This document shows, piece by piece, positions 1,714-17,076 of a stretch of 17,604 nt of DNA. Every line of letters starts with the position of its first letter. Positions within the stretch are counted from its first letter, which is position 1. The notes beneath the pieces were generated by a model. It worked only from the letters and a program-made list of their open reading frames with translations, searched no databases and was not told the DNA's origin. Source of the stretch: a virus. Location: positions 121,970-139,573 of IMG/VR virus record IMGVR_UViG_3300021400_000219; one strand, written 5' to 3'. The position numbers were made by a program, and so were the translations under genes.

Positions 1714-2082
1714 TTACTCCCCGCTAACCGCCTTGAAATAGGTGGTGCGCTTCTCCTGCACCTTCTCCACAGTGCCAGCCTCAACCATCTGCCGAAGCAG
1801 AGCCGAAGCCCACTGGGAGGACTTGCCAAAGTTGGCACCCACATCCTTAGCCTGCCGCAGGAGGTTGGGGTCCTCCATCAGGAAATCCAGAATCTGGACC
1901 TTGAACCCCTCGTTCTCCAGCTGCTTCTTGGAAGGCTTGCGCTCACCCTTGGAGCTGTTGCGCTTCTGGTAAGAAGCCTTGCAAGCCTCCAGCTTCTCCA
2001 CAACCTCAGCATCGAAGTTGTTGCGGGACAGGAAGTCAATGGCGGAAGTCAGAGCGTCCACATAAGTCATCTTGGTAGCCAT
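1714..2082 (-). CDS. winged-helix-like small DNA-binding protein, paralog family 1 (subtype a)
   Basis: 122-aa ORF; ATG 2082 after AAAGGA SD. The C-terminus ...SSQWASALLRQMVEAGTVEKVQEKRTTYFKA looks like a recognition helix plus wing. Paralogous to 7440..7805, 4399..4761 and 9645..10019. Confidence 0.9.
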   Translation of the reverse strand: MATKMTYVDALTSAIDFLSRNNFDAEVVEKLEACKASYQKRNSSKGERKPSKKQLENEGFKVQILDFLMEDPNLLRQAKDVGANFGKSSQWASALLRQMVEAGTVEKVQEKRTTYFKAVSGE

Positions 2083-2261: not shown

Positions 2262-2321
2262 TTACAAAGTAGAAACAAAATGGTTACAATTTGGTTACAG
2301 GCGCCCGGGCGGAAAACTGCA

Positions 2322-2597
2322 TCAAGCGTGATGCAATTTTCCATCAACGACATAAGTTATACTTTCAAGGCCATCATACTCATCAATTTCCCAGTCGGTA
2401 CAGTTGTCAGGAAGGTCTACCATCACAAGGTTTGCGGTGTAGCCAGAAATATCTTTAGAACCATACTCGTGCATTAACATGATTAAACGCTCATCAGTGC
2501 GTTCAATCATGGCGTAAGGATGTTTCAGACCCAGCTTGTTACAAGCCATAGGAGAAAGAGAAAAACCACCATAGCATTTATTCAACACAATCTTCAT
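2322..2597 (-). CDS. hypothetical protein (91 aa)
   Basis: ORF track; ATG 2597 after AAGGAGG SD. The stop lies inside the hairpin TTGCATCA-N4-TGATGCAA. Confidence 0.85.
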   Translation of the reverse strand: MKIVLNKCYGGFSLSPMACNKLGLKHPYAMIERTDERLIMLMHEYGSKDISGYTANLVMVDLPDNCTDWEIDEYDGLESITYVVDGKLHHA

Positions 2598-2628
2598 TTG
2601 AAGTTACCTCCTTCGTTTCTGTAATTAT

Positions 2629-2657
2629 AATATACCACAGTATTCGCTAATAGTCAA
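2629..2657 (-). promoter_or_regulatory. sigma-A/70-type promoter, class B
   Basis: Minus TTGACT-N17-TATATT (TGG-extended); GTTACATTTTGGTTACA at 2658-2674. Confidence 0.65.
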
Positions 2658-2698
2658 GTTACATTTTGGTTACAGAAATGCCCGGGCGCTTCACTGCG

Positions 2699-2839
2699 CT
2701 AAAGCAGTGAAGAACGCCATTTTATTTTCCAGCAATACCAAAACTTAAAAATATTATACGGTTTTACCCCCATCAAATACGCCCCCTTTTTATGCACTTT
2801 ATACGCATCAAAAAACTTTCTTTCAATAATCTTTCTCAT
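2699..2839 (-). CDS. small basic, aromatic-rich protein (46 aa)
   Basis: Below the ORF-track cut-off. ATG 2839 lies 4 nt after the exonuclease stop, with AAGGGGG SD. Sequence MRKIIERKFFDAYKVHKKGAYLMGVKPYNIFKFWYCWKIKWRSSLL. The stop is in the loop of CTTCACTGC/GCAGTGAAG. Confidence 0.55.
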   Translation of the reverse strand: MRKIIERKFFDAYKVHKKGAYLMGVKPYNIFKFWYCWKIKWRSSLL

Positions 2840-2843
2840 TTAT

Positions 2844-3619: not shown

Positions 3620-3699
3620 GATGGTAAATTGCACAAAATGCGCAGGTAGTTTTTGTGCAAAATGCCGGGGCGCCCGGGCGGGAGTTAGCCGCAGCTAAC

Positions 3700-3834
3700 T
3701 CACCATGTATGCGTGTCAATGTATTCCACAAAATACCATGCAGGCATACAAAGATAATAAATACCTAACAGAAACAGGGCCGCAATAAGCTTAAAGGGAA
3801 ACAGAATATAATTTTTAATACGCTTTTTATTCAT
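3700..3834 (-). CDS. small single-TM protein (44 aa)
   Basis: Below the track cut-off. AAAGGA SD. Sequence MNKKRIKNYILFPFKLIAALFLLGIYYLCMPAWYFVEYIDTHTW. The stop abuts the GAGTTAGC/GCTAACTC hairpin. Confidence 0.6.
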   Translation of the reverse strand: MNKKRIKNYILFPFKLIAALFLLGIYYLCMPAWYFVEYIDTHTW

Positions 3835-4282: not shown

Positions 4283-4361
4283 GATAAATTTGTTCGTCAA
4301 TTTGCACAAAAGTGGTTAGTATAGGCTAACCGCACCCGGGAGAGTTAGTGTGCGCTAACTT

Positions 4362-4398: not shown

Positions 4399-4761
4399 TC
4401 AAATGTCCATGGCCTTGAAGTAGGTGACACGCTTGTCAACATACTTGTCAACCATGCCGTTGAGATACAGGGTGCGGAGCAGACCGCTCACCCGCTGGCT
4501 GGTAGCATCTGCCAGCTCAGGCACCCCAGCGCAAATCTCAGAGATGCGGAAACCCTTGTCCGAATCATCCCGCAGGAAATCCAGAATCTTGGAGCGAATG
4601 GCATCGTTTTCCACCTGCTTGGCGGAAGGCTTGCGCTCAGCCGTGGACTTCTTGGCAAAGCCCTCGGCAATCTTTTCCAGCTTCTCCCGCAGGGCAGTTT
4701 CCTCAGCAGGGACGAAAGTCAGGGCCATCTCAATAGCAGTCTTATTAGTCAGCTTAGTCAT
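4399..4761 (-). CDS. winged-helix-like small DNA-binding protein, paralog family 1 (subtype b)
   Basis: True start MTKLTNK at 4761; the track ORF extends through the promoter. The C-terminus GFRISEICAGVPELADATSQRVSGLLRTLYLNGMVDKYVDKRVTYFKAM is nearly identical to that of 9645..10019. Confidence 0.9.
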   Translation of the reverse strand: MTKLTNKTAIEMALTFVPAEETALREKLEKIAEGFAKKSTAERKPSAKQVENDAIRSKILDFLRDDSDKGFRISEICAGVPELADATSQRVSGLLRTLYLNGMVDKYVDKRVTYFKAMDI

Positions 4762-4830
4762 AGTATCACTCACTTTCTCCGTTTTAACGAGTTCGGCTCT
4801 CAATCTTTTGTTTTCCTTTACTGTACTTGT

Positions 4831-4988: not shown

Positions 4989-5037
4989 GATGGGATTTTG
5001 CACAAATTAGATTAACTTCTTTTGGTTAAAATGTCAA

Positions 5038-5066
5038 TAGACAAGCGCATGTTTTTGTGATAAAAT
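5038..5066 (+). promoter_or_regulatory. plus-strand promoter facing a GC-rich island
   Basis: TAGACA-N17-TAAAAT (TGA-extended) followed by TAGTGGGGGG. Its -35 overlaps a minus-sense TTGACA (GTCAATAGACA, 5033-5043). Confidence 0.5.
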
Positions 5067-5072
5067 TAGTGG

Positions 5073-5150
5073 GGGGTCTGCGCGCGGCGGCACCGGCCGT
5101 TATCGGGACGCGCGTGTGTGTGCGTGTGTCGCTTTAAAGAGCTAAAGCGC
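5073..5150 (+). ncRNA. candidate small RNA / GC-rich island, copy C
   Basis: Starts downstream of promoter 5038-5066. Sequence GGGGGTCTGCGCGCGGCGGCACCGGCCGTTATCGGG...GCTTTAAAGAGCTAAAGCG, homologous to 14045-14135 and 16951-17045. Contains a 22-nt alternating purine-pyrimidine run at 5108-5129. The 3' end is unknown. Confidence 0.3.
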
Positions 5151-5170
5151 CCGGGAGAGTTAGCGAGGGC

Positions 5171-6827: not shown

Positions 6828-6840
6828 GGAATTTACCTCC

Positions 6841-6945
6841 TTACCAACCAAAAATCCGAGAGAGTATAACAAGTATTGCATCAAATACAGCTCCAATACC
6901 AATGGCACCCATAATCATCCAAAATAAAACATCCATGTCTTTCAT
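6841..6945 (-). CDS. 34-aa hydrophobic micro-protein (single TM)
   Basis: Below the track cut-off; GAGGGAGG SD. Sequence MKDMDVLFWMIMGAIGIGAVFDAILVILSRIFGW; first gene after promoter 6975-7002. Confidence 0.55.
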   Translation of the reverse strand: MKDMDVLFWMIMGAIGIGAVFDAILVILSRIFGW

Positions 6946-7350: not shown

Positions 7351-7439
7351 TAGAAAATTGAAAAAAATTTAATGGAATTTATTCCCATTTACCCGGGCGC
7401 GTTAGCTGCTGCTAACTCTGGAAGAAAAAGGAAGGGGGA

Positions 7440-7805
7440 TTACTCCCCCTTCACCTGGAAGCGGCTGACCCGCTTCTCCACAACCTTCTCCACGGTTCCA
7501 GCTTCTACCAGCTGGCGCAGAAGGGCGGAAGCCTGCTGGCTGGAAGAGAGTTCCAGTTCGGCGGCTACTTCCTTCGCCTGCATAGGCTCGTGGTCAGTCA
7601 GCAGTTCAACGATGCGGGCCTTGATACCCTCGTTTTCAATCTGCTTCTTGGTGGGCTTGCGCTCGCCCTTGGACTTGGAAGCGTTCCGCTTCTCATAGCT
7701 GGCCTTGCAAGCAACCAGCTTTTCCATGGCTTCCTCGTTGAAGTCAGCGGGCAGGGAAGCAATAGCCATTTCCAGAGCCTTCACATAAGTCATCTTGTTA
7801 GTCAT
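7440..7805 (-). CDS. winged-helix-like small DNA-binding protein, paralog family 1 (subtype a)
   Basis: True start MTNKMTYVKAL at 7805. Collinear with 1714..2082 (EKLxACKASYxKRN..KGERKP.KKQ.ENEG..., ...ASALLRQ.VEAGTVEKV.EKR). The stop is in the GUAA loop of AAGGGGGA/TCCCCCTT. Confidence 0.9.
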   Translation of the reverse strand: MTNKMTYVKALEMAIASLPADFNEEAMEKLVACKASYEKRNASKSKGERKPTKKQIENEGIKARIVELLTDHEPMQAKEVAAELELSSSQQASALLRQLVEAGTVEKVVEKRVSRFQVKGE

Positions 7806-7879
7806 AGTATGCACTACCTTTCTCTGTTTTAACGAGTTCAGCTCTCAATCTGTTTTGTTCTTTCCCTTACTGTGGCTTT

Positions 7880-8117: not shown

Positions 8118-8495
8118 TTAACCCCGCTTGTACTCTTTAGTGCCCATAGAGTAAGGAATGTTGTACATCTCACAAGCTTCAATGGCGTACCCGATTGCCA
8201 GATTTGCCATTTCCTGGGCTTGCTCATACTTTCTGTTAGGGGTAATCTTGTAAAGAAAATGGTCATTCTGAACCTGTTCAAACAAGTAGGACATTTTCAG
8301 TCGTGCATGAGCTTCGACGGCAAGCCGCTCAGATTTGGTAGCTTTTGGCATTTTAATCCATGCTAAACACTGAAAATGTTCATTCTGTCTGATGCTGGAA
8401 AGACGCTGTGCTGGGGTGTCTTTGCCAGTTTCACCCAGCTTGAAAACACCATTCTTACGGCAGAAATAATTAAAACCAGTATAAAAGCAAGCCAT
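8118..8495 (-). CDS. T5orf172 / GIY-YIG-superfamily-like domain protein (125 aa)
   Basis: ORF track. GVFKLGETGKDTPAQRLSSI plus ERLAVEAHARLK fits the KIG-T...R...L / E..LH pattern of T5orf172 (MUG113) domains as I remember it; not verified by search. Confidence 0.8.
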   Translation of the reverse strand: MACFYTGFNYFCRKNGVFKLGETGKDTPAQRLSSIRQNEHFQCLAWIKMPKATKSERLAVEAHARLKMSYLFEQVQNDHFLYKITPNRKYEQAQEMANLAIGYAIEACEMYNIPYSMGTKEYKRG

Positions 8496-8588: not shown

Positions 8589-8649
8589 TACCTTTTTTCA
8601 AATTTTTTAATGGAATTTTTTTCCAGTTGCCCGGGCGCAGGAGTTAGCA

Positions 8650-8955
8650 TTAGCTAACTCCATTTTCTTCCAGACAAAATTCAAAACTCAAATCTTTTAC
8701 CACTTTTTGGGAAATGTATTCACGCACAAGGAAAAGCTCTAAATCTCTAGCCTGCTCCTCTACATAGCTACGGCGCAAATCGCGCACAGTGGAAAGATTT
8801 ACCATCGGGTATTCCATAGGATAACCACGCGCAACCACAATTACATTGTAAAGATTTTCCACGGGGTTCACCCTCATTCTCTTTTTCTTCTGGAATTTAT
8901 TGGTTTTATTGCGTTCAACTTTCGTTCTAAATTCTTTCATTTTTGCCTTGCTCAT
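8650..8955 (-). CDS. hypothetical protein (101 aa)
   Basis: Start MSKAKMKEF at 8955 overlaps the upstream stop as ATGA. The stop lies in the loop of the GGAGTTAGC-N4-GCTAACTCC hairpin (8640-8661). Confidence 0.8.
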   Translation of the reverse strand: MSKAKMKEFRTKVERNKTNKFQKKKRMRVNPVENLYNVIVVARGYPMEYPMVNLSTVRDLRRSYVEEQARDLELFLVREYISQKVVKDLSFEFCLEENGVS

Positions 8956-9180: not shown

Positions 9181-9261
9181 TACCTTTTTTAGAAAAATTT
9201 ACTGGAAATGTTTTCCAAGTGCCCGGGCGGCGCTTTAGCGCACTGAAGCGCTAAAGCATCC

Positions 9262-9644: not shown

Positions 9645-10019
9645 TTAAACCCCCTCACCCATGGCCTTGAAATAAGTAATGCGCTTATCTACGTACTTAT
9701 CTACCATTCCGTTCAGGTAGAGCGTCCGCAGAAGTCCGCTCACCCTCTGGGAAGTCGCATCGTTCAGAGCGGGAACACCTGCGCAGATTTCAGAGATACG
9801 GAAACCTCTGTCCACATCTTCCCGCAGGAAATCCAGAATTTCCGCACGGACGGCGTCGTTCTCTGCCTGCTTTGCGCTAGGCTTGCGGGGAGCGGTGTTC
9901 TTCTTAATGGCCTGTTCCTTCATCTTCTCCAGCTTTTCCACAACATCCGTCATGTCAGCGGGAACGTAGGACAGAGCAACTTCCAGAGCCTTAACAGTAG
10001 TCATCTTATTGGTAGCCAT
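9645..10019 (-). CDS. winged-helix-like small DNA-binding protein, paralog family 1 (subtype b)
   Basis: True start MATNKMTTVKAL at 10019. The stop is in the palindrome GGGGGTT-T-AACCCCC. Confidence 0.9.
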   Translation of the reverse strand: MATNKMTTVKALEVALSYVPADMTDVVEKLEKMKEQAIKKNTAPRKPSAKQAENDAVRAEILDFLREDVDRGFRISEICAGVPALNDATSQRVSGLLRTLYLNGMVDKYVDKRITYFKAMGEGV

Positions 10020-10073
10020 AGTATCACTCACTTTCTCTGTTTGTGGGGTTTATCAGCTCCCCTTGATGTATTA

Positions 10074-10475: not shown

Positions 10476-10644
10476 TATTTATTTATACAAGCGGAACTAA
10501 TAGAAAAATCAATTTAAAATATTTATACATATTTATTTATTATTAAGGGTACCGGCGCAATTCTCAAATCAAAAACCTTCCAGGTCTATTTACTTCTGGA
10601 AAATGAAATAAAAATAGGGGCTGATTTATTTTCAAAAATGAGAT

Positions 10645-10735
10645 GAAAAAACGAGAGTATTTCTTTCGTAGATTCAAAGGAAACAATTTCGTTTTTCAAT
10701 CCAAAAATCATAAGGAAACACTCTCGTTTTTCAAT
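10645..10735. repeat. direct and inverted repeats 3' of the Lys-rich ORF
   Basis: GAAAAAACGAGAGT (about 10645-10658) is inverted relative to ACTCTCGTTTTTC (about 10720-10733). Direct repeats AAGGAAACA..TCGTTTTTCAAT occur twice (about 10677-10700 and 10712-10735). Confidence 0.6.
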
Positions 10736-10888
10736 TCAGAAATCTTCAATTTTTTTATTTTTTTCTTTGGCTCGATTATACTCTGAACCTTTGCCCTTTT
10801 TATTAGCTATTCTTTTGGACCTTTTCCGCAGAGTATTTAAACCATCACCATCAGTCTTTTTAATTTCTTTAACGGTTTTTTCATCCAT
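10736..10888 (-). CDS. small Lys-rich protein (50 aa)
   Basis: Below the track cut-off. ATG 10888 lies 3 nt after the HAD-gene stop, with GGGAGG 10 nt upstream. Sequence MDEKTVKEIKKTDGDGLNTLRKRSKRIANKKGKGSEYNRAKEKNKKIEDF. Confidence 0.5.
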   Translation of the reverse strand: MDEKTVKEIKKTDGDGLNTLRKRSKRIANKKGKGSEYNRAKEKNKKIEDF

Positions 10889-12046: not shown

Positions 12047-12490
12047 TTACCCGATATGGGCGGCCAGCCAAGCCAGCATCTTTTTGCTTTCTTTAGCGCA
12101 CCGGATTTTCATCCCGCCGCCGTTCTTCTGGCTTTCCCGCTCGGTCTTGCAGAACTCGGTGCAGAAGGCGGTGAACTCGTCCCGGTTCATCATATAGACC
12201 TGATAATCGGCGGTAACGTAGGCCCAGAGGTTGCTGTGGGTGCGCTCCATATAGAGGGCCCAGATTTCATCATAAGTTTCCCGGCCTTCGCACAGGGTGG
12301 CGCTCATAAGGGTGAAGGCAGAAGCCTTGACGGAGATGAGCATTTCACCAAGCTCGATATCAGAGCCTTTGTCATATGCACCGCTATCATGGGTGGTGCG
12401 GTCGATGCCCATATAGTGGCACAGATCGTGCTCACGGGCAATGCCCTTATTAGTAGCGGGGGAAACGTGGTCAATCTTGAAGGTCTTCAT
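12047..12490 (-). CDS. hypothetical protein (147 aa), noticeably GC-richer than its neighbours
   Basis: True start MKTFKIDHV at 12490 after AAGGAAAGGGAG. GSDIELGEMLISVKAS weakly recalls a PD-(D/E)xK nuclease core; that part is low confidence. Confidence 0.85.
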   Translation of the reverse strand: MKTFKIDHVSPATNKGIAREHDLCHYMGIDRTTHDSGAYDKGSDIELGEMLISVKASAFTLMSATLCEGRETYDEIWALYMERTHSNLWAYVTADYQVYMMNRDEFTAFCTEFCKTERESQKNGGGMKIRCAKESKKMLAWLAAHIG

Positions 12491-12521: not shown

Positions 12522-12550
12522 AGTATAGCACCATTCCCCGGGATAGTCAA
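12522..12550 (-). promoter_or_regulatory. sigma-A/70-type promoter, class C
   Basis: Minus TTGACT-N17-TATACT (TGC-extended); CCCCGGG lies in the spacer. Confidence 0.7.
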
Positions 12551-12614
12551 TACAAAATCGCAAATTTCCCCTTGTGCAAATTATACAAATGTTGGAGCGG
12601 ATTTTTGGGGGCTG

Positions 12615-12631
12615 TTGTGCAAGTTGCACAA
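12615..12631. promoter_or_regulatory. 17-bp perfect palindrome, operator candidate
   Basis: TTGTGCAA-G-TTGCACAA, read directly. Confidence 0.6.
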
Positions 12632-12669
12632 TTAGTGTAACCTGGGTCACATTAAAAGTAACAAAAGAG

Positions 12670-12697
12670 TTACAATCTCTAACAATCAATTACAATC
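12670..12697. repeat. three 10-bp-phased TWACAATC repeats (iteron-like)
   Basis: TTACAATC 12670-12677, TAACAATC 12680-12687, TTACAATC 12690-12697. The core is shared with the class B GGTTACAAT motif. Confidence 0.7.
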
Positions 12698-12727
12698 TTT
12701 TTTTTACTTTCAAAACACTTTTTTTAA

Positions 12728-12910
12728 GTTAGCAGTTAGCAAAGGGTAATGCTAGTTAGCACAAGCTAATTGTTGTTAGTTCGAACTAACTCCGGTTAGC
12801 AGGGACTAACTGGAGTTAGCCTAGGCTAACTTTAGCACACTAAAGCTGTAGCGATTTAGCGAACTAAAGTGCGCCGGACCTGGCAATTTGAACAATTAGC
12901 GGCTGCTAAC
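12728..12910. repeat. tandem array of 8 TTAG(C)-loop-(G)CTAA mini-palindromes
   Basis: Hairpins or palindromes at 12737-12754, 12755-12769, 12775-12790 (GTTAGTTCGAACTAAC), 12795-12810, 12814-12831 (AGTTAGCCTAGGCTAACT), 12830-12845, 12855-12868 and 12896-12909. Confidence 0.85.
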
Positions 12911-12913
12911 TTT

Positions 12914-13167
12914 GTGCATTTTGACGAGGTTTCGGGATTCGTCAAGTTGCACAAAAATGTAACCAAATTGTAACCAAAATTTGTGCAATTTGACGGTGGC
13001 GCGAACTCGGCTGCCAACGACTGCGCTGGGCCACAGTGCACTCGTTGGCGGCCGGTTCGTCATTTTGCACAAATGCGTGCGTGCGAGGGGCCTTAACTTT
13101 ATGCATTATGACGAAAAAAAATTTTTGTGCAAAATGACGAATCAAATCCTGATTCGTCAAAATGCAC
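12914..13167. repeat. array of GTGCA-N3-TGACG motifs in nested inverted pairs
   Basis: Forward copies at 12914-12927, 12983-12996, 13101-13114 and 13127-13140. Reverse copies at 12939-12952, 13057-13070 and 13154-13167. Further copies at 4294-4307 and 10322-10335. Confidence 0.8.
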
Positions 13168-13192
13168 AAAAAAAGAGGCATTGCCCGGCCTC
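13166..13192 (-). terminator. intrinsic terminator
   Basis: Minus GAGGC-CGGGCAAT-GCCTC followed by TTTTTTT. Confidence 0.6.
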
Positions 13193-13463
13193 ATCGGGGG
13201 GAAGCTTGACGCCCTTCCCTGGCGGTGGTGTCCACTTTCGGGGACACGCCCGGCTCCGTTTGCTAGCCGCAGGAGCGTCGCGGCGCTGGGGTCGTTCCCT
13301 TGCCCCTTGGGGAACTTGATGGCCTCCATTTCTATCCCGCGGCCTTGGGGGCGGCCTAGCTACTTTGTGGGGAGTATCGCCCACGTTTCGCCGACGCGGC
13401 TGGGATTTTGGTGTCATCGCGCATCCCGTGCGCTCAAGAGGGACAAGTCAACCTCTTTTCTAT
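13166..13463 (-). ncRNA. candidate ~300-nt GC-rich structured non-coding RNA
   Basis: Runs from promoter 13470-13498 to the intrinsic terminator GAGGC-N8-GCCTC plus T7 (13168-13192). No SD-preceded ORF. Many local hairpins, e.g. GUGUCC-CCGAAAGU-GGACAC and GGGAAG..CUUCCC. Confidence 0.4.
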
Positions 13464-13758: not shown

Positions 13759-13924
13759 CCCTTTTTTTCATTTTTTTTATTTTTTTTTGGTTCCCCATAC
13801 CCCTCCGGGGAACCACTGGCCGGCTATTTTTTACCTCCCGCCCTAGGGGGTGGCCCTTGGTACTTTGTGGGGTATCTTGCCCACGTTTCCCAGAGGGAGG
13901 GCCCGGAGGGTTTCCCCTCCTGAC
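13759..13924 (-). ncRNA. candidate short GC-rich RNA between tandem promoters
   Basis: Starts after promoter 13931-13959. Contains GGAGGG-GAAA-CCCTCC and GGTTCCCC..GGGGAACC hairpins and a ~50-nt block homologous to 13341-13392. Confidence 0.3.
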
Positions 13925-13959: not shown

Positions 13960-14007
13960 TTGACAAATCTCACAAATCGGGATGTTCTATTTTGTGCATT
14001 TTTACTC

Positions 14008-14037
14008 TTGACAGCCGAGCCTATTTTGTGGTATAAT
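14008..14037 (+). promoter_or_regulatory. plus-strand promoter facing a GC-rich island
   Basis: TTGACA-N18-TATAAT (TGG-extended); the upstream CATTTTTACTCTTGACA is conserved with 16916-16944. Confidence 0.6.
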
Positions 14038-14044
14038 ATTTCTG

Positions 14045-14171
14045 TACTGCCTGCGCGCGCGGTCGCCGGCCGTTAGCGGGGGCTAACTGTGCCTGGGTGT
14101 GCGCCTTTATTGCAATAAAGCACTAAAGTGCACAAGGGCAAAAAACTACGAGGATTTTTTAATCCTCGTAG
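14045..14171 (+). ncRNA. candidate small RNA / GC-rich island, copy A
   Basis: CTGCGCGCGCGGTCGCCGGCCGTTAGCGGGGGCTAAC...GTGTGCGCCTTTATTGCAATAAAG... running into hairpin 14146-14171, which is shared with the convergent minus-strand gene. Confidence 0.3.
14139..14171 (-). terminator. intrinsic terminator containing the stop codon
   Basis: Minus CTACGAGGATT-AAAA-AATCCTCGTAG followed by TTTTTTG; the stop of 14159..14290 lies in the loop. Confidence 0.75.
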
Positions 14172-14385: not shown

Positions 14386-14529
14386 TTATTTAATTCTTTT
14401 TACTTTGATAACCTTAGCCCCAGAGTATTCAGCTTTTCCCTCTTTCAGAAATTTGCGGTTAGGATTGACAAGGGTGATGGTAGATTCTTCGCCGCAAAGG
14501 CTGATGGTAATTTCATAAATCTTTTTCAT
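14386..14529 (-). CDS. hypothetical micro-protein (47 aa)
   Basis: Below the track cut-off; AAAGGAAA SD. Sequence MKKIYEITISLCGEESTITLVNPNRKFLKEGKAEYSGAKVIKVKRIK. Confidence 0.6.
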   Translation of the reverse strand: MKKIYEITISLCGEESTITLVNPNRKFLKEGKAEYSGAKVIKVKRIK

Positions 14530-14562
14530 TTTTTTTCATTTCCTTTCCTTTTTTCTGTCTTT

Positions 14563-14591
14563 ATTATAGCATCGGCCGGGCGATTTGTCAA
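14563..14591 (-). promoter_or_regulatory. sigma-A/70-type promoter
   Basis: Minus TTGACA-N17-TATAAT (TGC-extended). Confidence 0.75.
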
Positions 14592-14609
14592 CCCCTTTTT
14601 TGAAATTTT

Positions 14610-14756
14610 TTAGGGAAATTTATCTCTCCCTAAAAAACAATCCCGCATAAATTCCAACTGTTCCAGAGAAAAGCGGGCCGCAAATTGTGCGGGCGTCTCT
14701 TCAAAGAGATGGTATCCGTTGGCAACCATTTCCATTACAACTTCCAGCTTTTTCAT
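14610..14756 (-). CDS. hypothetical micro-protein (48 aa)
   Basis: True start MKKLEVVMEMVANGY at 14756 after AAAGGAGGAAC. Confidence 0.65.
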   Translation of the reverse strand: MKKLEVVMEMVANGYHLFEETPAQFAARFSLEQLEFMRDCFLGRDKFP

Positions 14757-14786
14757 TTTGTGTTCCTCCTTTGTTTTTGTACCTTT

Positions 14787-14814
14787 ATTATACCATACTT
14801 TTGGCAAATGTCAA
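14787..14814 (-). promoter_or_regulatory. sigma-A/70-type promoter (gene-proximal tandem)
   Basis: Minus TTGACA-N16-TATAAT (TGG-extended). Confidence 0.7.
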
Positions 14815-14923
14815 GACCTTTTTTCAATTTTCTTTTGGTCTTTGCGGGTCCGACCCCCGCACCCTCTGAAGGGCTGTTGTCGGCTTGGAGGTCCTTCCTA
14901 CTGGGACCCCGTCCTTGATTATT

Positions 14924-14951
14924 ATTATAGCAGATAATAGCCAAAAGTCAA
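14924..14951 (-). promoter_or_regulatory. sigma-A/70-type promoter, class B (distal tandem)
   Basis: Minus TTGACT-N16-TATAAT (TGC-extended); ATTACA 14951-14956 and GGTTACAAT at 14961-14969 and 14983-14991. Confidence 0.6.
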
Positions 14952-15022
14952 TTACAAAATGGTTACAATTTTATTTCAGAATGGTTACAATTTGCGCCCG
15001 GGCAAATGGGAAAAAGAGGGAA

Positions 15023-15487
15023 TTACTTCCCTCTCGCCCATGTCAGAACGTCCATAATCATTTCAGGATTGAAGGCCCAACCTTCCATTTCTTCCCACTC
15101 AATCACATTGTTTTCTTCATCGTCAAACAGAATCCCATTTTTCACGGTGGGCACTGTGCTTTTGGGCGTCCCATAGGGAACAATGTTGATTTCATCAAAG
15201 TGAACGCTTGCAAGGTGTTTCTTGAGCCAATTCTTTTTGGCTTCAATAACCTTTTCGTCAAATTCCTTGTTGCTATTCTTAGCTAACCAACTAACTACCC
15301 CGATTGTCCATCCCTTTTTCTGAAGGTTATTCAACCGACGGGCAAGGGCGTTCATGTTTACCAGAGGCTTAGCAACTTCATAGGGGAAGGGATTGTTTTC
15401 CAGTAGATAACCCAGCCAGTTTTCTACGCCGTAGAAGTTGGCGATTGTTCCATCCATGTCAAAGTAGATTGCCCGATTGATTTTCAT
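15023..15487 (-). CDS. HAD-superfamily hydrolase, 5'(3')-deoxyribonucleotidase (NT5C)-like, paralog 2
   Basis: 154-aa ORF; AAAGGAG SD; contains YFDMDGTIA. The stop is in the GUAA loop of AGAGGGAA/TTCCCTCT (15015-15034). Confidence 0.9.
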   Translation of the reverse strand: MKINRAIYFDMDGTIANFYGVENWLGYLLENNPFPYEVAKPLVNMNALARRLNNLQKKGWTIGVVSWLAKNSNKEFDEKVIEAKKNWLKKHLASVHFDEINIVPYGTPKSTVPTVKNGILFDDEENNVIEWEEMEGWAFNPEMIMDVLTWARGK

Positions 15488-15590: not shown

Positions 15591-15619
15591 TTGACAAATT
15601 GAAAAAACTGTGATACAAT
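15591..15619 (+). promoter_or_regulatory. plus-strand promoter followed by a T19 tract
   Basis: TTGACA-N17-TACAAT (TGA-extended), then AAAGGGGGAATTA and T19. Confidence 0.6.
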
Positions 15620-15632
15620 AAAGGGGGAATTA

Positions 15633-15651
15633 TTTTTTTTTTTTTTTTTTT
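15633..15651. repeat. homopolymer T19 (A19 on the gene strand)
   Basis: Counted directly from the sequence. Confidence 0.95.
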
Positions 15652-15652
15652 G

Positions 15653-15688
15653 GTTAGCTTAGGCTAACTTAGGTTAGTATGTGCTAAC
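15653..15688. repeat. two TTAGC-type mini-palindromes
   Basis: GTTAGC-TTAG-GCTAAC (15653-15668) and GTTAG-TATGTG-CTAAC (15673-15688), followed by CCCGGGCG at 15691. Confidence 0.8.
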
Positions 15689-15705
15689 TACCCGGGCGCA
15701 AGAAA

Positions 15706-16868: not shown

Positions 16869-16915
16869 TTGGTAAATTGCACAAAAAAGTTTTTGATTTT
16901 TGGGCATTTTTACTC

Positions 16916-16944
16916 TTGACATTCGCTGTAAATTGTGGTAAAAT
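16916..16944 (+). promoter_or_regulatory. plus-strand promoter facing a GC-rich island
   Basis: TTGACA-N17-TAAAAT (TGG-extended) followed by AAAATGGGGAG. Confidence 0.6.
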
Positions 16945-16950
16945 AAAATG

Positions 16951-17076
16951 GGGAGCTGTTGTTCGCGCGCGCCGAAGGCCGTTAGCGGCCGCTAACCGGG
17001 TGTGCGTGTGCGCACCTTTATAGCTTTAATGGGTTAAAGTAACCGGGTAAAAAAGAGAAGGACTTTTCAGTCCTTC
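16951..17076 (+). ncRNA. candidate small RNA / GC-rich island, copy B
   Basis: GGGGAGCTGTTGTTCGCGCGCGCCGAAGGCCGTTAGCGGCCGCTAACCGGGTGTGCGTGTGCGCACCTTTATAGC... Includes the 16-bp palindrome GTTAGCGGCCGCTAAC (16981-16996) and a 16-nt alternating purine-pyrimidine run (17000-17015). Confidence 0.3.
17046..17076 (-). terminator. intrinsic terminator containing the stop codon
   Basis: Minus GAAGGACT-GAAA-AGTCCTTC followed by TCTTTTTTACC; the stop codon (17067-17069) spans the loop and the first base of the 3' arm. Confidence 0.75.

Follow-up and report, generated by a model that had tools for sequence, protein, structure and literature searches.

The DNA considered here is a stretch of 17,604 nt from a rumen phage, referred to as the window (position numbers are window positions), in which a short palindrome with TTAG and CTAA arms forms a tandem array at 12728–12910 and recurs between small genes. 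These palindromes are, on balance, likely to be operators of a host repressor of the DtxR/MntR type that responds to a metal, probably iron, and they match in both sequence and spacing the sites that stand by feoA, flavodoxin and regulator genes in host genomes. A host repressor is the simplest answer to the question of which protein binds the phage sites and, since the palindromes are identical in sequence to the putative feoA and regulator operators of gut Clostridia, the phage probably recruits or soaks up the metal-sensing repressor of its host; gut and rumen Clostridia are the likely host group. Two arrangements of the element are found in the phage: single operators at the junctions of one-gene early cassettes, just upstream of a CCCGGG box, and close-packed arrays with a 20-bp period in non-coding hubs.

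Sequence and spacing of the palindrome

In the window, TTAG-N4–8-CTAA occurs 19 times against 1.7 expected, a count reached by none of 200 shuffled sequences. An earlier note, made from the letters of the window alone, had allowed the palindrome centres of 4–8 nt; this range is indeed enriched, but the enrichment is confined to N6, with 16 copies of TTAG-N6-CTAA against 0.38 expected and all other gaps from 0 to 40 at background. Because N6 alone is enriched, the element has a single fixed spacing. Longer hairpins with a TTAG/CTAA base, which would be the sign of a hairpin-recognising protein, are not enriched in the window across the same gaps. The element is an 18-bp dyad, AGTTAG-N6-CTAACT, formed by two inverted half-sites of 9 bp, and its window copies read (A/G/C)GTTAG-N6-CTAAC(T/C) in the 18-bp frame. 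All 16 N6 copies are non-coding or touch merely a stop codon (at 8644).

The copies listed in the earlier note all exist in the sequence, and so does the array, although a description as eight back-to-back palindromes overstates it: the 183 bp hold five canonical 18-bp units, two shorter variants and one degenerate left end, as follows.

12728–12755: degenerate left end, not canonical; two overlapping GTTAGC half-sites and TGCTAG
12754–12771: canonical array unit AGTTAGCACAAGCTAATT, N6
12774–12791: canonical array unit TGTTAGTTCGAACTAACT, 20 bp after the unit at 12754
12794–12811: canonical array unit GGTTAGCAGGGACTAACT, 20 bp after the unit at 12774
12814–12831: canonical array unit AGTTAGCCTAGGCTAACT, 20 bp after the unit at 12794
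12830–12845: short variant CTTTAGCACACTAAAG, N4, with TTTAG/CTAAA arms; doubtful whether bound by the same factor
12854–12869: short variant ATTTAGCGAACTAAAG, N4
12894–12911: canonical array unit AATTAGCGGCTGCTAACT, 80 bp (four periods) after the unit at 12814

Both short variants read (C/A)TTTAG-N4-CTAAAG. The dispersed copies given earlier are likewise real, with one more (core 4316–4329) that had been missed. Seven dispersed copies lie 3–8 bp from a CCCGGG box.

1233–1250: dispersed unit AATTAGCGCAGGCTAACC, 4 bp from the CCCGGG box at 1225
1673–1690: dispersed unit, 4 bp from the box at 1665; the terminator of winged-helix gene 1714–2082 lies on one side of it and the next promoter on the other
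3683–3700: dispersed unit, 6 bp from the box at 3673
4314–4331: dispersed unit (core 4316–4329), 5 bp from the box at 4335, promoter side
4343–4360: dispersed unit, 4 bp from the box at 4335, other side
7400–7417: dispersed unit, 4 bp from the box at 7392; it follows winged-helix gene 7440–7814 and its terminator
8642–8659: dispersed unit, 8 bp from the box at 8630, overlapping the stop codon of the gene ending at 8650
14071–14088: dispersed unit in a plus-strand promoter unit, ~35 nt downstream of promoter 14008–14037
15652–15669 and 15672–15689: pair of units 20 bp apart, 3 bp from the box at 15691
16980–16997: dispersed unit CGTTAGCGGCCGCTAACC in a plus-strand promoter unit paralogous to that at 14008

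The units at 4314–4331 and 4343–4360, 29 bp apart, bracket the box at 4335, and the pair at 15652–15689 lies downstream of a plus-strand promoter at 15591 and a T19 run. One sequence counted earlier as a copy, the 'CTTTAGCGC variant' at 9232–9257, is a CTTTAGCGC-N6-GCGCTAAAG hairpin (−21.4 kcal/mol) beside the box at 9222; read as TTAG-N12-CTAA it has a spacing that is at background frequency, which makes its membership doubtful, and it is probably a terminator-type hairpin outside the palindrome set.

Arrays and non-coding hubs

The array lies in a non-coding hub (12551–13174), between a terminator-like hairpin (13175–13192) and the promoter (12522–12550) of gene 12047–12490. Together with the array, the hub holds TGTGCA-N3-TGACG, GTAACC repeats and TTGTGCAA-N-TTGCACAA; it is kept in the close variants L061 and L066, and half of it is replaced in the close variant L065. 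The nearest promoters are 200–360 bp from the array, and a promoter scan of the window found none that would drive transcription of it. A second non-coding hub of ~1.5 kb stands at the head of the cassette block just past the right end of the window (L062 2200–3700), 6–7 kb from the first, and contains two more palindrome arrays (2884/2924/2962 and 3491/3511/3531) and many CTTTAG...TAAAG variants, so that at least three arrays lie within 10 kb of one another in this phage. Gene 12047–12490, directly downstream of the array, has no family or structure match in Pfam, PHROGs, NCBIfam or PDB; its homologs have upstream arrays in four of 13 loci, which is suggestive.

Other repeats are enriched as well, and may be further host operators or sites of the winged-helix paralogs described below. 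A 17-bp motif, TTTGTGCA-WWW-TGACGA, occurs in eight copies in both orientations against 0 expected (window 12913–13170, also 4295 and 10321), mostly as inverted pairs beside the array. GTAACC-N5-GTAAC is present four times against 0.02 expected, TTGCACAA 15 times against 1.2 and CTTTA-N6-TAAAG five times against 0.05.

Conservation in related phages

Across several hundred copies in related phage contigs of 70–180 kb, the arms of the dyad are conserved and the centre is variable. Among 253 sites of related viral loci, 90% have G at −1 and 60% have A at −2, and the six central bases vary; taking these together with the 16 window sites, positions 4–9 of the half-site are conserved and positions 1–3 are variable. 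The exact 20-bp period is kept in divergent relatives despite their differing sequence. Seven viral contigs have at least three exactly phased units, and the arrays reach a considerable size in some relatives: ~30 contiguous 20-bp-phased units in L319 (4028–4840) and 14 in L152 (4714–5027). Smaller phased arrays occur in L078 and L141, and the 14 kb of L316 contain 45 sites. A free centre between conserved arms, together with one spacing and a 20-bp phase, is the imprint of a dimeric DNA-binding protein and not of a structural hairpin. Recognition as double-stranded DNA is therefore the form that we favour, and the earlier suggestion of dimer-binding palindromes agrees with the conserved arms, variable centre, fixed spacing and phase that are read from the sequence.

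The alternative is that the palindromes act as RNA, whether as weak terminators, 3′-end protectors or processing sites, with the array forming a multi-hairpin RNA. The palindromes do occupy the slot beside the CCCGGG box that strong hairpins fill in other cassettes, and in the window itself most centres add one C-G pair to the stem. Among the 253 related sites, however, the centre does not extend the stem in 55%, and the stem sequence is conserved rather than covarying, with its spacing fixed. Folding is weak, with a median of −7.9 kcal/mol in the window and −5.3 kcal/mol in relatives against −14 to −24 kcal/mol for gene-specific hairpins of the same slot. The palindromes have no U-tract, and a separate GC-rich terminator with a T-run is usually present in palindrome cassettes. 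In a terminator scan one of 16 sites passes (8640–8661), and only on the strand opposite the genes. The element is also found in the non-transcribed promoter spacers of host genomes, and no promoter drives the array. An action as RNA is accordingly very improbable, and the earlier judgement that these would make poor terminators is borne out. Intrinsic termination in particular was rejected in view of the weak stems, the missing U-tract and the true terminators that lie separately upstream.

Matching sites in bacterial genomes

The operator reading draws most on a scan for tandem pairs of GTTAG-N6-CTAAC in one genome per species, which covered 185,579 bacterial and archaeal species (596 Gb). 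Such pairs were found at no fewer than 120 loci, against ~10–30 by chance (our own estimate, from 20 specified bases). Among 80 matches listed, ~70 belong to Bacillota, mostly gut and rumen Clostridia (Oscillospiraceae, Lachnospiraceae, Ruminococcus and Eubacterium). Cultured strains with the pair include Lachnospiraceae bacterium V9D3004, Huintestinicola butyrica and Allofournierella massiliensis, and the pair is likewise present in Ruminococcus sp. CAG:488, where a DtxR/MntR-family protein of 121 amino acids is encoded beside it (L233 2083–2448).

The host pairs lie in promoter regions, spaced most often 33–35 bp, and at 15 of the 120 loci listed the palindrome passes a strict test for a position inside the −35/−10 spacer (between TTGACA and the −10 box). 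In 77 of 120 matches listed, the pair has feoA or a DtxR-like gene no more than 1 kb away, with feoA at a median distance of 11.5 bp. Clustering of the flanking open reading frames (ORFs) among the matches listed gave FeoA at 69 loci and a protein of ~123 amino acids at 26 loci, as well as flavodoxin, DUF2325 and DUF3793. Pfam identifies the ~123-residue protein as Fe_dep_repress plus Fe_dep_repr_C and confirms FeoA and flavodoxin, and a profile of these host-site regulators matches MntR and DtxR structures with E values from 1e-24 to 1e-19. Host and phage sites agree even where the search left bases free: both have a purine at −2 (C in 3–5%), and in both the first base of the centre is usually a pyrimidine and seldom G. 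Features of a metalloregulator operator are thus present, namely a dyad of ~9-bp half-sites with outer specificity and the same sequence at metal-uptake and regulator promoters. From the sequences we propose RGTTAGY-N4-RCTAACY as a candidate operator for a DtxR/MntR-type regulator of feoAB in gut and rumen Clostridia, of which we found no published description. We infer that a protein of this type is the binder both in these hosts and on the phage.

Proposed action on the host repressor

In host genomes the operator candidates overlap promoters, which they would repress. On the phage, metal-loaded dimers of the host repressor would bind the sites after DNA entry and, on the arrays, would do so cooperatively and side by side. 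The most likely effect is titration: the sites would multiply with replication of the phage DNA and deplete the repressor, and host ferrous-iron uptake would then be derepressed. Titration is favoured because the sites are outside phage promoters and multiply with replication; sites that avoid promoters and are redundant, with up to ~30 units in relatives, fit a sink for repressor. As a secondary or alternative effect, bound repressor could form a metal-dependent roadblock that insulates neighbouring cassettes. Titration and roadblock are not separable here, and a further option is that early genes may be made metal-responsive. The earlier note had compared the layout to a master operator, which comes close to the operator reading reached here.

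A bolder version, which we offer tentatively and consider rather doubtful, is that the phased arrays are a means of host takeover that needs no phage protein, a DNA sponge that strips away an iron or manganese repressor, and that the hubs of large Firmicute phages are collections of operators for host global regulators. Such hubs would stand at the head of early-gene blocks, and ferrous-iron uptake would be switched on for the benefit of the phage.

Several points weigh against a host metal repressor as the binder. Of the 120 host loci listed, 43 lack both feoA and a DtxR-like gene within 1 kb, and gene neighbourhood alone ties the operator to the regulator in Clostridia; a literature search for a Clostridial DtxR/feoA operator of this form found no description. 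The scan pattern itself required GTTAG/CTAAC, so that its counts are lower bounds and the G at −1 in the host set is partly forced. The operator comparison is with Clostridia at large, the group to which the host of the phage probably belongs. A phage site stands either ~55 nt before the −35 box or, at three plus-strand promoters, ~35 nt after the promoter; this lack of promoter overlap, unlike the host sites, means that the phage sites are not simple repressor sites. In variant L065, half of the array is lost and two units carry TTAG-to-TTAA changes; these losses make individual units dispensable, although they can also be read as the redundancy that fits a sink. Finally, the phage DNA read amounts to ~20 kb of a 174-kb genome (ENA ERZ28612966, scaffold_111), and the binder may be encoded beyond it.

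Regulators encoded by the phage

This last point leads to an alternative that we regard as unlikely, in which a regulator of the phage (a winged-helix paralog or a protein encoded outside the region read) binds the palindromes as its own master operator and the match to host sites is mimicry or coincidence. Four winged-helix paralogs are encoded in the window (1714–2082, 4399–4779, 7440–7814 and 9645–10031), three of them directly followed by a palindrome. Several motif classes coexist with several of these paralogs, and the array-bearing relatives L141, L167 and L316 carry winged-helix paralogs as well. Paralogs and sites nevertheless come apart: L056–L058 have a winged-helix paralog at 59% identity and zero sites in 15–16 kb, and the 19.7 kb of L053 contain one site alongside three paralogs. 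In alignments, the paralogs are without the Pro-Ser/Thr-Val-Ser recognition-helix signature of the host regulators; compared with the DtxR family they reach an hhalign probability of 10%, and their only matches are weak ones of the MarR/ArsR type. The earlier proposal that these proteins bind the array is hence not favoured, with homologs at 59% identity in site-free loci and no specific relation to DtxR, and a role as DtxR mimics was dropped on the profile–profile probability of 10%.

Searches for a DtxR-like gene by tblastn and hidden Markov models found none in 1.7 Mb of phage loci. In a scan of the viral collection, 16 viral contigs encode a DtxR-like protein, none of them among the motif-bearing contigs. 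Both results stand against a DtxR-like regulator of the phage's own.

Alternative readings: partition, packaging and replication

The combination of clustered and dispersed copies could also suggest a parS-type centromere or a packaging (pac) site, with a phage partition protein or the small terminase as its binder. Arrays of a similar palindrome, GTTAGTGNNNACTAAC, also stand just upstream of small and large terminase genes in 22 viral loci of unrelated phages. This reading carries a very low probability. The parS consensus TGTTNCACGTGAAACA, as known in Firmicutes, has no match in the window at up to three mismatches. No ParA, ParB or terminase gene is present in the window and its flanks (20 window proteins against Pfam), nor is a terminase gene nearby in this phage. 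Three or more arrays within 10 kb are unlike a single pac site, and a centromere or pac site leaves the link to host feoA and dtxR unexplained.

The 22 loci deserve a separate remark. They include L067, L072, L095, L099, L125 and L128, come from phages of ~50–56% GC, and have their GTTAGTGNNNACTAAC arrays by DnaA-box-like TGTGGACAA repeats; from their position near terminase genes, these arrays may be a pac or origin region.

A replication origin with iterons could take a comparable form. In phage lambda, four dyad-symmetric sites for the O protein stand by an AT-rich stretch, and the phased dyads of the window lie beside an AT-rich run (12690–12727) in a 620-bp non-coding region. In the part of the genome read, however, there is no inflection of GC skew at the array and no adjacent initiator gene; many single copies are found at cassette junctions, a second hub with arrays lies 6–7 kb away, and the element is identical to the putative host operator. 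We therefore think an origin of the lambda type most improbable.

Gene cassettes

The window is a minus-strand block of small genes, each with a near-consensus promoter of the sigma-70 type (TTGACA, 16–18 bp, TGnTATAAT) and a strong GGAGG ribosome-binding site. Alignment of the window gave ~30 minus-strand promoters with strong consensus matches, and promoters and ribosome-binding sites are both of the Firmicute type. Along the direction of transcription, a unit runs from the upstream gene's stop codon through a hairpin, a box of the CGCCCGGGCG type and a stretch of ~40 bp with repeats to the −35/−10 boxes. The ~40-bp stretch holds one class of repeat: TTCCA, GTAACC, TTGCACAA or TGACGA. The CCCGGG box, often in the form of the 10-bp palindrome CGCCCGGGCG, is present 22 times in the window against 3.4 expected (for example at 1225, 1665, 2304, 7392, 8630, 11465 and 14997), and at most minus-strand promoters it lies 21–49 bp, usually ~41–43 bp, upstream of the −35 box. 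After cassette swaps among close variants, it is the point at which homology restarts.

The near-identical variants L061, L065 and L066 differ from the window by replacement, loss or gain of entire one-gene cassettes (window 2311–2842, 6840–6943, 8125–8490 and 14390–15481), and the swaps are bounded by a start codon on one side and the hairpin or CCCGGG box on the other. Since homology ends at the start codon and at the hairpin or box, genes shuffle between conserved promoter modules. It could be supposed that the palindromes are themselves the recombination sites that move cassettes, in the manner of integron attC sites or of the promoter/stem-loop modules of T4-type phages; besides the whole-cassette swaps, a two-gene segment is replaced in L061 by 64 bp ending in a palindrome that abuts the box. 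The breakpoints, however, fall at the box and promoter module with TTAG palindromes and gene-specific hairpins alike, and arrays of 30 units would be left without explanation. The resemblance to integron core sites suggested earlier also fails: GTTAGY is unlike GTTRRRY in having a pyrimidine at the third R, the element of 18 bp lacks the architecture of attC (57–141 bp), and there is no integrase in the window or its flanks. We give recombination at the palindromes scarcely any weight. Promoter and stem-loop modules that bound gene swaps are a property of the whole cassette architecture and not of the palindrome itself.

Most window proteins are without assignment, the exceptions being two nucleotidase-like HAD paralogs, an exonuclease-like protein and the four winged-helix paralogs; searches of Pfam, PHROGs and NCBIfam with 20 window proteins gave only nucleotidase-like HAD, exonuclease-like and generic winged-helix matches. 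Scans of the window with Rfam (E up to 1) and for tRNAs found nothing relevant. The window is 99.9% identical to contigs of 136–174 kb from sheep-rumen metagenomes, and the whole window found no counterpart by megablast among 50,697 phage records. Among cultured phages, the closest relatives are those of Enterococcus with ~140 kb, whose exonuclease is 41% identical at the amino-acid level. Weak hints of a host come from two contigs of the phage family that were binned with Acutalibacteraceae and Gastranaerophilales genome bins.

Further features of the block can be noted. Three paralogous plus-strand units, antisense to genes (window 5030–5165, 14000–14140 and 16908–17050), share a consensus promoter, a GCGCGCG run, GGCCGTTAGCGG...GCTAAC, GTGTGCG and CTTTA..TAAAG palindromes, and may encode small RNAs; they enclose two of the dispersed palindromes. 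T runs of 19 and 25 (window 15633–15651 and 17475–17499), which are poly-A on the gene strand, come right after plus-strand consensus promoters and a AAGGGGGA motif. AT-rich non-coding stretches (22–30% GC) break the cassette block at 500–930 and 10480–10740, and neighbouring cassettes range from 35% to 57% GC, as if genes had different sources. Two mini-ORFs of seven codons on the minus strand, MYYSGFT (1423–1446) and MYPTGFI (1338–1361), each with a strong ribosome-binding site, lie within an otherwise non-coding transcript 3′ of the promoter at 1593–1621. A conserved GC-rich block, TACTTTGTGGGG.ATC..GCCCACGTTTC, occurs twice (13350–13390 and 13860–13890) in long GC-rich leaders 3′ of minus-strand promoters; it has no Rfam match and may be a structured RNA.

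Putative host-regulator sites in related phages

Sites that look like operators of other host regulators are gathered in relatives of this phage. In the cultured Enterococcus phage H1 (L177, OP534061.1), a non-coding hub of ~1 kb heads a block of small genes (hubs at L177 8431–9440 and 17805–18407; one hub is at 90.4–91.5 kb of the record). The early region of H1, which corresponds to that of the present phage, contains five sites with the CcpA cre consensus, four of which are the perfect palindrome TGTAAGCGCTTACA, five Rex boxes and five ATAACAnnTGTTAT sites; chance would give 0.05–0.1 for cre, 0.05–0.1 for Rex (each ~50–100× enriched) and 0.43 for ATAACAnnTGTTAT. To our knowledge, these clusters of cre and Rex sites in H1 hubs have not been described. 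Clusters of the LexA-like GAAC-N4-GTTC are found in L014 (six in 11.8 kb) and L131, and the Rex-like TGTKAA-N4-TTMACA occurs 25 times in 671 kb against ~0.2 expected (L029, L012, L040 and L045). The cre and Rex sites of H1, taken with the Rex-like and LexA-like clusters of relatives, make the gathering of host-regulator operators look like a habit of this phage group. In the window itself, motif counts gave no cre, Rex or LexA consensus sequences. With H1 in culture and showing a parallel pattern of cre and Rex sites, the general idea is open to bench testing now.

Comparison with known systems

In form, the phage modules recall the PeSL of T4-type phages, in which small early genes are flanked by a conserved module of promoter and stem-loop. 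Both have small genes flanked by modules and gene swaps in variants that are bounded by these modules; we know of no PeSL stem-loops that match host operators. Cluster A mycobacteriophages have stoperators, numerous repressor sites scattered over short gaps between genes; these are asymmetric, 13 bp long and bound by the phage's own repressor. Plasmid RK2 has a dozen dispersed palindromes, the KorB O_B operators TTTAGC(G/C)GCTAAA, which serve a global regulator. Their half-site is nearly the same TTAGC, but the TTAGC arms are separated by N1 rather than the N4 of the phage, and KorB is a plasmid-encoded homolog of ParB, of which there is none among the window proteins.

Host-repressor operators are known from corynephage beta, which has one DtxR operator at the tox promoter. 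That is one operator on one promoter, whereas the present phage has 16 sites in 17.6 kb, including phased arrays away from promoters. The iron box of DtxR/IdeR is bound by a metal-loaded dimer of the DtxR family and controls iron uptake genes, and the classical DtxR box TTAGGTTAGCCTAACCTAA shares its GTTAG/CTAAC words with the phage dyad (PMC7762939). The two differ in spacing (N1 and N11 in the 19-bp box; N6 between TTAG and CTAA here), and the regulators by the host sites are, unlike those of the DtxR/IdeR system, two-domain proteins of MntR size, ~123 amino acids.

The closest geometry is that of MntR. At mneP and mneS of Bacillus subtilis, MntR binds four 18-bp sites, each of two 9-bp inverted repeats, that are 1 bp apart (PMC11882963). 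The recognition helix reads base pairs 4–7 of each half-site, the dimer spans ~20 bp, and dimer–dimer contacts lead to cooperativity (PMC11882963). The phage array similarly has 18-bp sites nearly back to back, with a period of 20 bp rather than 19 bp, and the 18-bp unit, conserved positions 4–9 and 20-bp period are the geometry expected for MntR-type dimers side by side. In B. subtilis, each array has four sites, extends over the −35 box and turns on an efflux gene; the phage arrays are viral, have 5–8 sites here and ~30 in L319, and lie 200–360 bp from the nearest promoter.

A large intergenic region dense in sites for a transcription factor of the host is also found in phages of Alphaproteobacteria, where clusters of CtrA sites have evolved repeatedly and are linked to 'lytic deferment' (PMC9437464). 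CtrA is a cell-cycle response regulator rather than a metal sensor, the hosts differ, and the CtrA sites lie mainly in promoters and have been shown to regulate phage genes, in contrast to the phage palindromes, which are mostly off promoters and whose binding is predicted. It is known that phages take over single sites of a host repressor, as at the promoter of diphtheria toxin, and that they cluster the sites of one host regulator, as with CtrA. Operators of a host metal repressor arrayed in a phage are probably a form not previously described and, if the reading is correct, ~30 packed operators of a metal sensor away from promoters would represent a different use of such sites, either titration by viral DNA or metal-dependent insulation. 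A by-product is the method of matching unexplained phage palindromes against host genomes.

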